A stretch of 64,000 nt of DNA, taken from sequence record MT446411.1, one strand, 5' to 3'. Shown here in pieces: positions 3,372-32,154 of this stretch. Below the pieces are notes generated by a model. That model had not been told where the DNA came from and made no database searches. It worked only from the letters and a program-made list of their open reading frames with translations. Origin of the DNA: Escherichia virus TH40. Numbering within the stretch: the first letter of the stretch is position 1; each line of letters begins with the position of its first letter. A program made the translations under genes and the position numbers.

Positions 3372-3379
3372 TATAAATA
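3372..3379 (+). promoter_or_regulatory. T4-type late promoter TATAAATA for t
   Basis: Exact TATAAATA 18 nt upstream of the t ATG, followed by SD aaggag. Confidence 0.7.
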
Positions 3380-3397
3380 TCTTTAAAGGAGAAAAGT

Positions 3398-4051
3398 ATG
3401 GAACCAAAAGTAGGAATATCAATACCCGACCTACTTTTTGGACTTCTTGATAGAATTTTTAAAGATAATGCGACCGGGAAAGTTGTTTTTTCCCGGGTAC
3501 TAGTTATTGTTCTATTATTTTTAATGGCGGTAATCTGGTATAAAGGTGATGCACTTTTAGATGCGTACAGGGATGCTTCATATGCCTCATACACTGAAAT
3601 GATAAGGCAAGACCAGGATAACAGATTTAAAATTGCAGCTATCGAGCAAATCCAGATAGTCCACTCGTCAAGTGGAGCAGACTTTACAGCAATATATTCC
3701 TTTAGACCAACTAACCTTAACTACTTTGTGGATATGGTGGGATACGAGGGAATATTGCCTGATACAGTCGACGAAAAAAATTTAGGTGGGTTTCCAATAG
3801 ATAAGACTTCAGCGGAATATTTGGCGGGGGTTAATGGTAATTATTTTGAATCCAGTGTGGAATCTGTATTCTTACCAACAAAGAAAAAAAGCAGCTTCAC
3901 ATATATGTTCAGCTGCCCATTCTTTAATTTGGAAAACGTTTATGCAGGCACAGTCTCACTGTACTGGTATAAGCAAAAACCCGACCTTGGTTTTGATAGG
4001 CTTTCTTCTATGTGTGGACAAGCAGGTCGTACGCTCGGGCGTACACGTTAG
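3398..4051 (+). CDS. t: holin t
   Basis: 217 aa; LLFGLLDRIFKDNATGKV... N-terminal TMD matches T4 T holin; late promoter and SD upstream. Confidence 0.9.
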   Translation: MEPKVGISIPDLLFGLLDRIFKDNATGKVVFSRVLVIVLLFLMAVIWYKGDALLDAYRDASYASYTEMIRQDQDNRFKIAAIEQIQIVHSSSGADFTAIYSFRPTNLNYFVDMVGYEGILPDTVDEKNLGGFPIDKTSAEYLAGVNGNYFESSVESVFLPTKKKSSFTYMFSCPFFNLENVYAGTVSLYWYKQKPDLGFDRLSSMCGQAGRTLGRTR

Positions 4052-16795: not shown

Positions 16796-16948
16796 CTACT
16801 CAACTTTATAGACTTGCCCATACGCGGTATAGTATTCACCATCCCAGGTCTCACACATAATGGTGACAAAGGATGCAAACAAGGGTTTAGTATCGGCCCA
16901 CAGATAACCGTATTCGCCATTTGACAACGTAACCCACCACTTTTTCAT
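16796..16948 (-). CDS. small protein (50 aa) behind a late promoter
   Basis: MKKWWVTLSNGEYGYLWADTK...; SD aggag. Confidence 0.4.
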   Translation of the reverse strand: MKKWWVTLSNGEYGYLWADTKPLFASFVTIMCETWDGEYYTAYGQVYKVE

Positions 16949-16966
16949 GGACTTCTCCTATAAGAC

Positions 16967-16982
16967 GGGAGAATATTCTCCC
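16967..16982 (-). other. perfect 16-bp palindrome GGGAGAATATTCTCCC in the leader
   Basis: Between late promoter and SD of 16796-16948. Confidence 0.55.
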
Positions 16983-16987
16983 ACATC

Positions 16988-16995
16988 TATTTATA
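16988..16995 (-). promoter_or_regulatory. T4-type late promoter TATAAATA
   Basis: Exact rc TATAAATA overlapping the gene 39 stop. Confidence 0.5.
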
Positions 16996-18887: not shown

Positions 18888-19147
18888 TATTCAAATCGGA
18901 TGGTACTGTTCTTGAACAACAAACCAGAACAAACAGTTCCTTCAACTTTCTTACCAGTTGGACCCACGGCCGTAAAGCCTGTATGTTGGAAATCATCTTT
19001 ACCGCAAGAGAACCAGTTATATCCAGTGATTTGGATTTGTTCATAGCCGTTTGCATCTAATACACGAATAGCATTATCTGCATCAGTACAGCCAGCCAAT
19101 GAAACTGCCAGAACCAGCGCTGCAATAGAACGATTAATGTATTTCAT
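18887..19147 (-). CDS. putative lipoprotein
   Basis: 86 aa; signal peptide with lipobox LAGC. Confidence 0.6.
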   Translation of the reverse strand: MKYINRSIAALVLAVSLAGCTDADNAIRVLDANGYEQIQITGYNWFSCGKDDFQHTGFTAVGPTGKKVEGTVCSGLLFKNSTIRFE

Positions 19148-28236: not shown

Positions 28237-28470
28237 TTAAACTACTGGGGTAGGCGTAAACATCGCCGCGTTCTTAGTTCGCCAATCAGCTGCACTAGAC
28301 GCTACGGTGACATAAGCGGCCTTTTCGGAAGGAAAAGTCTGATAGTGTGCATTCGCAATACGATGCTCATTTGAATAGATTTCAAACGGAACAGATACTT
28401 CAACACCTTTAACTTCTTTACCTTCACCAGCTGGATGCGTAAAGGTTTTGATATTAACGAAACCACCCAT
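28237..28470 (-). CDS. soc: small outer capsid protein Soc
   Basis: 77 aa; ...VNIKTF...HYQTFPSEKAAY matches T4 Soc. Confidence 0.8.
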   Translation of the reverse strand: MGGFVNIKTFTHPAGEGKEVKGVEVSVPFEIYSNEHRIANAHYQTFPSEKAAYVTVASSAADWRTKNAAMFTPTPVV

Positions 28471-28501
28471 AATTAACTCCTTTGTTGTTTAATTACGGGT
28501 G

Positions 28502-28509
28502 TATTTATA
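28502..28509 (-). promoter_or_regulatory. T4-type late promoter TATAAATA for soc
   Basis: Exact rc TATAAATA ~30 nt upstream of soc ATG. Confidence 0.6.
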
Positions 28510-29339: not shown

Positions 29340-29431
29340 CGGATTTGGAAATTAACCAGTAAGAAAGACAAGAAACATCATGGACTTTTTAGCCCATGAT
29401 GTTTTTCTGCGGAACTTACCGGAATTCCTTC

Positions 29432-30460
29432 CTAAACTTTTGCGTACTTCGAAAGTCGCATTCTTGCCATCAACCCTTGAGCAACGTTATCGGCCATATA
29501 TGATTCGATTTGTTCAGGGGTTGCACCCTCCGATTTAACCATCTCATTTATGTCTTTCGTATGCCATGGTGCATTGTCCCAGAACATAACAGCTTCGCCA
29601 GCTTCAACGAGTTTCTTCATACGTTTAATCGTATCCGGATGTCTTGGCTCGTTGTCCATTACCCATACTCGGGTTTCAGCATAAGGAACGGATTCCAATG
29701 CTAATGTTCCGCCGGTTATCGCAATGCTGTTAGGGATAAACAAACTATCAATCGGACCTTCCATTACCCACACGCGCTTGCGCTCATCAATCTTGTCTAC
29801 TCCATAGACTTTTGAAGCTTCTGGGTGAGCTTTGATTGTGATATATTTTTGTGGTGCATCTTTGCGAAGAGCTCGTCCTTGGAAAGATTCGATTTCTTTT
29901 TTGCCGTTGAAGATAGGAATAACCAAGCGTGGTTCATTCGTTTCATTCTTATACGTCCCAGGATTAACGGAGTTAACTAATGCAGGCCATTTGTTTGTAA
30001 ACCATAACCGGTTCCAAACATTGCTCGGAATACACCGACTTTTTACATACTTAACTATCGGATACTCTTCTGGTAAAGTATCGATTCTTTCACAAAAAGC
30101 AAGCTCTTCAATAACCGGAGTTTTTTCTGGTTCTTTCGGAGCTTCTGCAACTTCATTACGTTGTCGACCGAAGGCATTCTCCTTGTACTTCTCGACCATA
30201 TATTCCCGGTGCAAATCCGGCTCAAACTCTTTTATGTATTTGCTTATATGCGTGGAGTAGTCACAGTTAAAACATTTCACGTAAACCGCACCATCAGACG
30301 GATTGGTATACGCCCAGAATCGAGCCTTGTGCGAATCTTTCTGGGAGTCACCACAAACCTTGCAACGACAGTTTGCCTTAAATGTGCTCCCGGTGACTTC
30401 TCTATAACGTGGTTGATACGATAAAGCTCTGACTGCAAATTCTCTATCAATATATGACAT
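29432..30460 (-). CDS. 61: DNA primase gp61
   Basis: 342 aa; N-terminal Cys zinc motif, TOPRIM-like core, same length as T4 gp61. Confidence 0.85.
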   Translation of the reverse strand: MSYIDREFAVRALSYQPRYREVTGSTFKANCRCKVCGDSQKDSHKARFWAYTNPSDGAVYVKCFNCDYSTHISKYIKEFEPDLHREYMVEKYKENAFGRQRNEVAEAPKEPEKTPVIEELAFCERIDTLPEEYPIVKYVKSRCIPSNVWNRLWFTNKWPALVNSVNPGTYKNETNEPRLVIPIFNGKKEIESFQGRALRKDAPQKYITIKAHPEASKVYGVDKIDERKRVWVMEGPIDSLFIPNSIAITGGTLALESVPYAETRVWVMDNEPRHPDTIKRMKKLVEAGEAVMFWDNAPWHTKDINEMVKSEGATPEQIESYMADNVAQGLMARMRLSKYAKV

Positions 30461-30492: not shown

Positions 30493-30660
30493 TTATACTG
30501 TAGGTTTATCGTCTTTATTCTTACGCTTTTTTGATGGGATTTGTTCAGGGCCTTTATTGACAACTGCCCCGGAAGTGGTACCTGTTGCGATATTAGTTGG
30601 GTTTCCACCTGCATCACCGGCAACCATATCTTCATTGATAAAATCTTTGAATGTTTTCAT
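30493..30660 (-). CDS. small internal-protein-like peptide with capsid-targeting-like N-terminus
   Basis: 55 aa MKTFKDFINEDMVAGDAGG...SKKRKNKDDKPTV; SD aaagggggg; late promoter upstream. Confidence 0.45.
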   Translation of the reverse strand: MKTFKDFINEDMVAGDAGGNPTNIATGTTSGAVVNKGPEQIPSKKRKNKDDKPTV

Positions 30661-30677
30661 AACACCCCCCTTTCCGC

Positions 30678-30685
30678 TATTTATA
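30678..30685 (-). promoter_or_regulatory. T4-type late promoter TATAAATA
   Basis: Exact rc TATAAATA 17 nt upstream of ATG 30660. Confidence 0.55.
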
Positions 30686-31069: not shown

Positions 31070-31420
31070 TTAACCTCGCTTCATGAAGGCATTAAAAATC
31101 TGGTCGTCGACAGACTGTTCTTGAGCTTTGCCTACCCTATTCAAAATGTCATTCGCTGCATCAGATAACATGACCCCAATTTCAGGGTTTCCAGTTATCC
31201 ATGCTGCACAATCGCGTACATTCTTTTTATCAAATGGATAACCGCGAGTATCTTCATAAGGCCCATTCATTACCAGGAATGAGCGAGCCTTTATGATAAT
31301 ATCATCTTTAACGATAATATAACCAATCGCTTGATTAAACCGAGGGTCGCGGAATTCATAATGAGCATTACCATCATTATTGCTCGCCAGTTCAAAATTC
31401 AGAAAATTGTAATCATTCAT
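31070..31420 (-). CDS. hypothetical protein sharing C-terminal tail with 31422-31859
   Basis: 116 aa; ends ...SVDDQIFNAFMKRG. Confidence 0.5.
   Translation of the reverse strand: MNDYNFLNFELASNNDGNAHYEFRDPRFNQAIGYIIVKDDIIIKARSFLVMNGPYEDTRGYPFDKKNVRDCAAWITGNPEIGVMLSDAANDILNRVGKAQEQSVDDQIFNAFMKRG
31076..31108 (-). repeat. 33-bp near-identical repeat (copy 1)
   Basis: 32/33 identical to 31428-31460. Confidence 0.6.
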
Positions 31421-31421
31421 A

Positions 31422-31859
31422 CTAATCTCGCTTCATGAAGGCATTAAAAATTTGGTCGTCAACTGAATAAACAGGATTTTCCAGAATTTTCAAAAGACTG
31501 TTTTTGATGTACTTGCCAGGGATATCCATATTAATGACACCATTATTCAATTCATTGTCTGGATTGATGTCTTTAAATTCAAACCCTTCAAACTCAACCT
31601 TGTCAGGAATACCATCAGCGAAAAAATAAACCAATTGGTGCATTGTATTGCGCGAAAATAATTTAGACTTGACTGCAATAAGTTCTTGCCAATGGTTTAA
31701 TTCTTTGTTAAGAAGCTTATGAGCAAACGTAATTCTATCATCACTATCAACAAGAAAATAACCCAGGTATTGAATTTCGTCGCTCCAAAACACCCGGTAT
31801 GCCTGTGCATTTGGATTTTTACAGCGAAGTTTTTTGATAACTAAATTTCTGTTAATCAT
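31422..31859 (-). CDS. hypothetical protein sharing C-terminal tail with 31070-31420
   Basis: Trimmed to MINRNLVIKK...; ends ...SVDDQIFNAFMKRD. Confidence 0.5.
   Translation of the reverse strand: MINRNLVIKKLRCKNPNAQAYRVFWSDEIQYLGYFLVDSDDRITFAHKLLNKELNHWQELIAVKSKLFSRNTMHQLVYFFADGIPDKVEFEGFEFKDINPDNELNNGVINMDIPGKYIKNSLLKILENPVYSVDDQIFNAFMKRD
31428..31460 (-). repeat. 33-bp near-identical repeat (copy 2)
   Basis: Encodes the shared DDQIFNAFMKR tail. Confidence 0.6.
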
Positions 31860-31860
31860 T

Positions 31861-32154
31861 TTATTCACCTGTAACCCATTGAACAATTTTGCTATTGTCA
31901 AATGAAGCATCGCAATACAGAACATAGTTATACTGCATAACGTCACCAGAAGTCAATTGGTCAGATACTTCTTTAACCATATCAGGGCGGTCGCGTTTAG
32001 TTATGTTCATGATATCAGCATAAATCTGATGTTCAACATCAGTCTGGTCAGCAGTCATAGACCACTCACAAAGGTCTTTATCAAGTCCAGCAGTAACTGG
32101 AGCTGTACCACATGATGCTACGGTAAGAATTGCCGCGATTAATAACTTTTTCAT
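31861..32154 (-). CDS. sp: Spackle periplasmic superinfection-exclusion protein
   Basis: 97 aa; signal peptide; ...DKDLCEWSMTADQT.VE.QI.ADIMNI.KRDRP.M...VMQYNYVLYCD matches T4 Sp. Confidence 0.85.
   Translation of the reverse strand: MKKLLIAAILTVASCGTAPVTAGLDKDLCEWSMTADQTDVEHQIYADIMNITKRDRPDMVKEVSDQLTSGDVMQYNYVLYCDASFDNSKIVQWVTGE

Follow-up and report, generated by a model that had tools for sequence, protein, structure and literature searches.

What might a 55-codon gene with a late promoter of its own be doing among the replication genes of a phage? The question is raised by a 64,000-nt stretch of Escherichia virus TH40 (sequence record MT446411.1; hereafter the window), in which a short minus-strand open reading frame (ORF) lies directly upstream of the primase gene 61. 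An initial annotation had proposed that this ORF encodes a small, Gly-rich protein that is packaged into the head and injected with the DNA, with an N-terminus like those of the T4 internal proteins (IPs). We find that the ORF is an orthologue of gp61.1, a gene that is already known and whose function is uncharacterised. Its product begins with a leader of the IP family and continues with a copy of the N-terminal segment of the mature major capsid protein, gp23*, and the two homologies point to one and the same predicted cleavage site. We tentatively read gp61.1 as a protein that is targeted to the prohead and processed there by the gp21 protease, a reading whose chances we put slightly below even.

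The region is 94.7-99.4% identical to that of the Gaprivervirus phages VR7, VR20, SP18 and UPEC07. The ORF is annotated as 'gp61.1 conserved hypothetical protein' in Gaprivervirus records, including those of VR7 and SP18, so it is not a new gene. The encoded protein is 100% identical to VR7 gp61.1 and matches the families phrog_1823 (E 1e-32, residues 1-52) and phrog_2086 (E 1.4e-16). The T4 orthologue (NP_049649, 54 aa), which lies at the equivalent position, reads MKTFKEFIKEDMVAGDSGGNPENISIGTTSGAVVNKGPEQIPKKKKEESKEKEE. A literature search on gp61.1 returned gene tables only.

To what extent the reading frame is maintained as a protein was assessed by comparing 35 distinct homologous core sequences pairwise. 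In the sense frame, differences at codon positions 1, 2 and 3 were 0.16, 0.10 and 0.53, and 6920 codon differences were synonymous versus 3110 non-synonymous. The protein encoded by gp61.1 is thus under purifying selection. These patterns, together with interruptions of the opposite frame in relatives, uphold the initial choice of a 55-aa gene on the minus strand over the plus-strand ORF that overlaps it. The strong Shine-Dalgarno (SD) sequence noted at the outset is also present, and SD-like purine runs lie upstream of all gp61.1 homologues examined.

A tblastn search with the 55-aa protein also matched the N-termini of major capsid protein precursors. Residues 2-46 align ungapped to residues 55-99 of VR7 gp23 (BLASTP E 1e-9, ~42% identity), residues 2-38 of T4 gp61.1 align ungapped to residues 57-93 of T4 gp23 (BLASTP E 6e-9), and alignment of the gp61.1 and gp23 family profiles with hhalign gave a probability of 97.4% (E 9.3e-12, 45 columns). 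The register is identical in ~30 phages for which both genes were recovered from one contig. With an arrow at the junction, the gp23 consensus reads F-L-x-E↓AEIGGDxGYxAxNIAxGxTSGA(V/I)TQIGPAVMGMVRR, and that of gp61.1 reads hydrophobic-x-E↓(D/E)MVAGDxGGxxxNIAxGTT(S/T)GA(V/I)xNKGPExxPxKKR. While the Gly-rich composition of the body had been noted correctly in the initial annotation, it had been missed that this body copies the gp23 N-terminal segment from about residue 57 to 99.

In this alignment, Glu10 of gp61.1 falls on Glu65 of gp23, the maturation cleavage site at which the gp21 protease removes 65 N-terminal residues (PMC9546572). Residue 3 of PDB chain 5vf3_A (mature gp23*; 456 aa, i.e. 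521 - 65) aligns with residue 13 of gp61.1, so that the mature N-terminus of gp23* corresponds to Asp11 of gp61.1. A cut after Glu10 yielding DMVAGD... had been proposed from the leader, and the gp23 register independently predicts the same cut. The junction is conserved throughout the family: the Met of MVAGD is preceded by a Glu at -1 or -2 in 166 of 166 distinct members, long forms (described below) included, and usually a Leu, Ile, Phe, Met or Val lies two residues before this Glu. The cleaved product is predicted to include the sequence DMVAGD...GTTSGAVVNKGP and to yield the semi-tryptic peptide DMVAGDAGGNPTNIATGTTSGAVVNK.

At the DNA level, gp61.1 and gene 23 are 48% identical, with 27% identity at third codon positions. 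Third positions are thus randomised, indicating that the duplication is ancient and that the likeness has persisted in the protein. The same figures speak against a recent gene conversion from gene 23, which we reject. Neither the short nor the long gp61.1 forms have a Pfam match (E up to 1 for the 55-aa protein).

The roles of the copied segment are known in gp23 itself. Residues 66-105 of gp23* are disordered in the unexpanded head, where they face the interior and probably touch the scaffolding core; on expansion they swing outward into an extended N-arm and a 25-residue N-fist, which touches four subunits in two capsomers and helps to form the Soc site (PMC9546572, PMC9958956). The head-length mutations A66D, A94V and G97S lie within these residues (PMC9546572). 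gp61.1 therefore copies a segment that is tied to scaffold contact, head geometry and capsid stabilisation. The gp24* protein is described as lacking an N-fist, and unassigned helical density lies beneath its subunits (PMC9546572, PMC9958956); in our BLASTP comparison of gp23 with gp24 the N-termini did not align, and the lack of an N-fist in gp24 is a statement of the literature only. The likeness between gp61.1 and gp23 ends near gp23 residue 99, where GPAVMGMVRR diverges to GPEQIPSKKRK. Mimicry of Gol, the Lit activator within gp23 (a 29-residue region with a 20-residue core), was also considered: Gol probably begins near gp23 residue 93-95 and would overlap the copied segment by its first few residues at most, a marginal overlap.

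The second homology concerns the leader, MKTFKDFINE. The leader of T4 IPII and IPIII is MKTYQEFIAE, and IPI begins with MKTFKEFTST...; among VR7-type leaders, Ip6 and ORF153c have MKTYQEFINE, Ip10 and ORF127c have MKTYQEFITE, Ip7 has MLTYQEFITE and Ip9 has MKTFNELFNE. The gp61.1 leader is identical to those of T4 IPII and IPIII at 6/10 positions and to that of VR7 Ip6 at 7/10, including the I-N-E triplet, so that the resemblance to the T4 capsid targeting sequence (CTS) claimed in the initial annotation holds in alignments with IPI, IPII, IPIII and the VR7 IPs. In the IPIII targeting sequence, positions 4 and 7 govern targeting and positions 8 and 10 govern processing, and an IP-type leader alone drives foreign proteins into heads (PMC9026906). 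The gp61.1 leader fills these positions with an aromatic residue (4), Phe (7), Ile (8) and Glu (10). The I-N-E followed by D at the leader end also fits, as a motif only, the gp21-type pattern Leu/Ile-x-Glu, of which LTE/A, LRE/S, IAE/A and ITE/A are known sites. T4 61.1 (18966-19130 in NC_000866) and ipI (73591-73878) begin with the same 22 nt (ATGAAAACATTTAAAGAATTTA), indicating that the leader is related to the IP leaders through descent or recombination rather than convergence; this identity fits a recombinational shuffling of leaders between distant loci. No other ORF with a CTS-like N-terminus was found in the 64-kb window.

We also considered whether the gene is expressed late in this lineage. 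An exact copy of the T4-type late promoter core TATAAATA does lie at the short distance upstream that the initial annotation had given. The bare 8-mer is not enriched in the 64-kb window (4 observed vs 4.96 expected), and all four copies are located 17-39 nt upstream of the start of an ORF on the same strand. Two of the four precede the genes for the t holin (spacing 18 nt) and a Soc-like head protein. Both soc and the t holin gene are late genes in T4, and the geometry at gp61.1 matches that at these genuine late genes, in keeping with its designation as a late promoter. Among 42 related loci in IMG/VR, at least five groups with distinct flanks, one of them a long-form group, have exact TATAAATA at 21-35 nt ahead of the homologue start, and the one-off variants GATAAATA, CATAAATA and AATAAATA occupy the equivalent position in others. 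Late transcription of gp61.1 is therefore well supported by sequence in this lineage, though not family-wide.

Two main architectures were found in the family. Short forms of 50-70 aa carry IP-type leaders in Tequatro-, Mosig-, Dhaka-, Gapriver-, Karam- and Slopek-type phages, and the Marfa-type short form has a different short leader, MTLLEKYKQSLSE. In the long forms of ~127-165 aa (phrog_2086; named '61.1' in Acj9 and in KVP40-type phages, whose gp61.1 has 159 aa), a conserved helical domain of ~105 aa replaces the leader ahead of the module (...LPLFE↓DMVAGD...). Some members also have a C-terminal extension of ~100 aa after the gp23-like module (P0152 and P0175, ~250 aa). The K/R run is conserved at the tail position across the family and the remainder of the tail is variable. 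The N-terminal part is thus interchangeable while the junction and the module are invariant, a pattern to be expected if cleavage sets the module free. Other phage head proteins are known to have propeptides longer than 100 residues (PMC5694885).

No known fold relative was found for the long-form N-domain, and this domain is not encoded elsewhere in the 64-kb window or in the T4 regions examined. Two larger uncharacterised phage proteins in BFVD, A0A411BBR2 (672 aa) and A0A1B1IT15 (913 aa), contain it at ~37% identity. By these matches, the module and the long-form N-domain are each found in several architectures.

The gp61.1 module was found in ~1450 phage records. Records with a gp61.1 match versus a gp23 match number 616 vs 636 for Escherichia, 83 vs 89 for Shigella, 56 vs 58 for Enterobacter, ~70 vs 71 for Acinetobacter and ~77 vs 86 for Aeromonas phages, counts that are approximate since some low-identity matches are gp23 itself. 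The gene is also present in Vibrio T4-like phages, which, like those of Aeromonas, have quite different hosts (PMC3468402). The module was not found in cyanophages or Vi1-like phages, which have distant gp23 relatives. gp61.1 is thus near-universal in proteobacterial T4-like phages, a distribution that fits a core morphogenetic role. An exhaustive HMMER search returned 56 clusters, all of short- or long-form size except for the best match, P0141, a spurious tandem-repeat translation that was discarded. The family appears to be confined to T4-like phages. The names 'major capsid protein' and 'major capsid domain-containing protein', given to gp61.1 homologues of 50-160 aa in many records and UniRef clusters, and 'methyltransferase', given in one, are misleading artefacts of annotation that stem from the short gp23-like segment. 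The genome block that holds gp61.1 also includes the head genes 40 and soc, and a head-related gene at this locus is therefore not anomalous.

Taken together, the precursor can be viewed as a 10-residue IP-family leader, a 32-35-residue gp23 copy and a short basic tail (55 aa, 5.8 kDa, computed pI 9.2). In this lineage it would be transcribed from its own late promoter and additionally by read-through from the upstream early genes. The leader, the gp23-like segment or both would bring gp61.1 into the assembling prohead core, where activated gp21 protease would cut after Glu10 as it cuts gp23 after Glu65, releasing the 45-aa peptide DMVAGD...KPTV (4.6 kDa, computed pI 9.3). The acidic gp23-like part of this predicted peptide (pI ~4) might then occupy sites that normally bind the gp23 N-terminus, and its basic tail (pI ~10.2) might bind DNA. 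The peptide could serve as a DNA-associated internal peptide, as an occupant of N-fist sites or as a scaffold competitor. The strongest arguments for such targeting and processing are that two independent homologies converge on one predicted cleavage site and that the junction is invariant.

Several observations weigh against this interpretation. No gp61.1 chain is present in the solved T4 head and prohead structures searched, no proteomic evidence was found that gp61.1 enters the prohead core, is cleaved by gp21, is present in the virion or is injected, and gp61.1 is missing from the classical core-protein inventory (PMC9958956). A peptide of 4.6 kDa may, by analogy with other core fragments (PMC9546572), escape via capsomer openings. 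The neighbouring genes are counter-defence genes (PMC9391042). In T4, a time-resolved proteome failed to detect the protein and the 61.1 transcript is classed as 'early', a class that ipII and ipIII share at the RNA level in the same data (PMC9697503 Table S2). T4-type phages carry TATGAATA rather than TATAAATA at the promoter position, and several groups among the 42 loci have only TTAAATA. Finally, when homologues were examined for a conserved N-terminal motif, the leader proved to be kept in several genera but absent from Marfa-type phages and from the long forms. Marfa IPs retain MKTYKEFIAE, yet Marfa gp61.1 starts with MTLLDQYKQSLSE, so that a test for co-variation between the gp61.1 leader and the IP leaders of the same phage was negative in Marfa. 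This mismatch indicates that the IP-type leader is not a feature of the whole family.

Rather than being packaged, gp61.1 might act in the cytoplasm as a counter-defence decoy, mimicking the exposed N-terminal region of nascent or unassembled gp23 and thereby titrating a host immune sensor or toxin that responds to the major capsid protein. We regard this as unlikely, although the mimicry of gp23 is real at the level of the alignments and the genomic setting favours such a role: T4 61.5 (dmd), 61.4 (tifA) and 61.2 (adfA) are adjacent and all inhibit toxin-antitoxin (TA) systems, and other genes of this 'anti-TA island' were named as candidates by the authors of that work (PMC9391042). Two adfA-like ORFs also lie just upstream in the window, and T4 61.1 is transcribed early like other island genes. 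Moreover, capsid proteins are common immune triggers (PMC9712102), and a gp23 peptide activates Lit (PMC3014915). No report of counter-defence activity of gp61.1 was found in the literature searched. The distribution of the gene, however, is core-like rather than that of a patchy accessory gene, which argues against a decoy without being decisive, and neither a conserved protease-type junction nor an IP-type leader would be needed by one. Late promoters in several lineages would direct expression to the time of head assembly (which is also when gp23 appears), and the likeness stops near gp23 residue 99, probably before the Gol core.

It is also conceivable, if rather improbable, that gp61.1 modulates assembly without being packaged, by competing with the gp23 N-terminal region for a partner (gp22, gp21, GroEL/gp31 or EF-Tu) and so tuning the timing of maturation or head length. 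The copied segment carries the head-length mutations and is thought to touch the scaffold (PMC9546572), the junction resembles that of a protease substrate, the distribution is that of a core gene, and the protein appears neither in the solved structures nor in the classical core inventory. An IP-type leader would nevertheless be needless for such a modulator, and no genetic link between 61.1 and head morphology was found in the literature searched. This explanation also overlaps with prohead targeting and is hard to part from it by sequence.

Returning to a targeted and processed gp61.1, we consider it a bold and doubtful extension that the released peptide is a free-standing N-fist acting in trans, docking where the gp23 N-fist is lacking or competing for the scaffold and so setting head geometry, or else a decoy that blinds capsid-sensing immunity. 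Candidate docking sites for such an N-fist are those around the gp24 pentons or the portal, near the unassigned density.

Even less probable is an element linked to the primase, in which the upstream frame would set gene 61 translation or mRNA stability, the promoter would supply late primase transcripts and the peptide would be incidental. Primase is downstream of gp61.1 in 42/42 of the IMG/VR loci and directly adjacent in 40, the T4 61.1 stop codon lies 5 nt from the gene 61 start, and in the window a UUCG hairpin is located between the two genes. Against this stand the strong amino-acid conservation, with change that is mostly synonymous; the gp23 homology held at the protein level while third positions were randomised (27% identity); and the conservation of the module even inside proteins of 155-250 aa.

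That the antisense plus-strand ORF is the expressed product and the minus-strand ORF spurious has virtually no chance of being true: the plus frame exists and is stop-free in most homologues, but it is broken in at least eight homologous loci and its product has no protein family match in a PHROG profile search. The sense frame, by contrast, has the better score, a conserved ATG and SD, the orientation of all its neighbours, a continuation of 105 codons in the long forms and homology to a real protein. The antisense frame is open in many phages only because its third positions fall on those of the sense frame, which also produces its apparent synonymous excess, and because Gly/Ala/Thr/Val-rich sense codons give no antisense stops; we therefore reject it as a compositional by-product.

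What would the preferred reading mean? How proteins are localised to the T4 scaffolding core is still called mysterious (PMC9958956), and here a near-universal small gene of uncharacterised function carries both known prohead 'addresses', an IP-type leader and the gp23 junction with its N-terminal segment. gp61.1 is thus a concrete candidate for either a new substrate of the protease and component of the head or a regulator of head length. The maturation junction and N-fist of gp23 emerge as a portable module that has been selected outside gp23, and in the literature searched no description was found of their combination with an IP-type leader and a basic tail. The analysis also corrects the misleading 'major capsid protein' names in databases. 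If the peptide should prove to be an N-fist in trans or a decoy, it would be a virus-encoded, protease-matured mimic of the phage's own capsid N-terminus that is conserved across T4-like phages; if it is a decoy within the anti-TA island, it would represent a new type of counter-defence, namely capsid mimicry.

The features of the locus are collected in Table 1.

Table 1. Coordinates of gp61.1, its parts and its flanking elements in the window
Feature	Position	Strand	Remarks
Complete gp61.1 coding sequence, including stop	30493-30660	-	55-aa ORF; translation MKTFKDFINEDMVAGDAGGNPTNIATGTTSGAVVNKGPEQIPSKKRKNKDDKPTV
Leader, codons 1-10, MKTFKDFINE	30631-30660	-	Putative internal-protein-type capsid targeting leader; ends in the predicted cleavage triplet I-N-E
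gp23*-like segment, codons 11-42, DMVAGDAGGNPTNIATGTTSGAVVNKGPEQIP	30535-30630	-	Paralogue of the mature gp23* N-terminus (N-fist and start of N-arm)
Basic tail, codons 43-55, SKKRKNKDDKPTV	30496-30534	-	pI ~10.2; first residues align with gp23 MVRR
Shine-Dalgarno-like GGGGGG run	30665-30670	-	4 nt ahead of the ATG
T4-type late promoter core TATAAATA	30678-30685	-	17 nt ahead of the ATG; overlaps the stop of the upstream 63-aa ORF
Primase gene 61	29432-30460	-	Begins 32 nt past the gp61.1 stop; invariant downstream neighbour
9-bp hairpin with UUCG tetraloop	30474-30495	-	Contains the 61.1 stop codon; dG -20.5 kcal/mol, z -3.4
Antisense ORF, 73 aa	30476-30697	+	Open frame present

The basic tail corresponds to the Lys-rich C-terminus that the initial annotation had pointed out. 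The UUCG hairpin is placed between 61.1 and the primase ribosome-binding site. It lacks a U-run and was not called by terminator prediction, and it is therefore probably an mRNA stability or processing element, as in T4 intercistronic regions, rather than a terminator. Just past the primase gene (29373-29404, minus strand), a terminator-like hairpin of 14 bp precedes a T-rich run and probably forms the 3' end of the transcripts that span 61.1 and 61.

As to the other copies of TATAAATA in the window, the one ahead of the Soc-like head protein (77 aa, phrog_1715; region 28237-28509, minus strand) lies at a gene that directly follows gene 56, and the segF homing endonuclease that is found between 56 and soc in VR7 and T4 is seemingly absent here. 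The t holin (217 aa, phrog_860; region 3372-4051, plus strand) is likewise preceded by TATAAATA. The copy at 16988-16995 (minus strand) is followed, in what would be the 5' leader, by the perfect 16-nt palindrome GGGAGAATATTCTCCC, and downstream of this by an SD and a 50-aa ORF (16796-16948, minus strand; phrog_4369, function unknown); the stretch 16796-16995 may hold a small late gene with a structured leader.

Two ORFs upstream of gp61.1 on the minus strand, 31070-31420 (116 aa) and 31422-31946 (174 aa), both end in ...DDQIFNAFMKR(G/D), and T4 gp61.2 (AdfA, the anti-DarT factor) has a matching C-terminal motif, ...IDDQIFNAFMNRG. By appearance, the two are adfA-like paralogues in tandem whose N-terminal parts differ. 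A tandem pair is also seen among the vertex proteins of VR7-type phages (VR7 record HM563683.1, 8503-11067), where the paralogues 24(1) and 24(2) have different N-terminal propeptides, beginning MAKINELLRE... and MQKINALIHE....

How does gp61.1 compare with known systems? Its closest counterparts, T4 gp61.1 and the phrog_2086 relatives, occupy the same spot upstream of primase, and the T4 protein has the same leader, module and basic tail. The T4 copy differs in having TATGAATA where the VR7-type copy has TATAAATA, and in its tail sequence.

The capsid targeting sequence of T-even internal head proteins was reportedly described by Mullaney and Black in 1996. gp61.1 shares with these proteins (IPI-III and Ip6-Ip10) the leader pattern M-K-T-[YF]-x-[ED]-F-I-x-E as well as small size and basic character, and VR7 ip9 also has TATAAATA directly upstream. 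The IP loci, however, lie near e/denV or 57B and not beside primase, and the IPs are hypervariable, whereas gp61.1 is near-universal and its body is a conserved segment of a capsid protein.

With gp23 (Gp23/Gp24 family, HK97 fold), gp61.1 has in common an ungapped stretch in which the cleavage Glu is in register. This match covers only ~45 of ~520 residues, without the HK97 domains, and on sequence grounds gp61.1 is not a capsid protein despite its database names. Dmd, TifA (61.4) and AdfA (61.2), finally, are encoded in the same cluster between the helicase gene 41 and the primase gene 61, and are likewise small and early in T4. They nevertheless belong to different PHROG families and have no sequence kinship with gp61.1, which is far more widely conserved.

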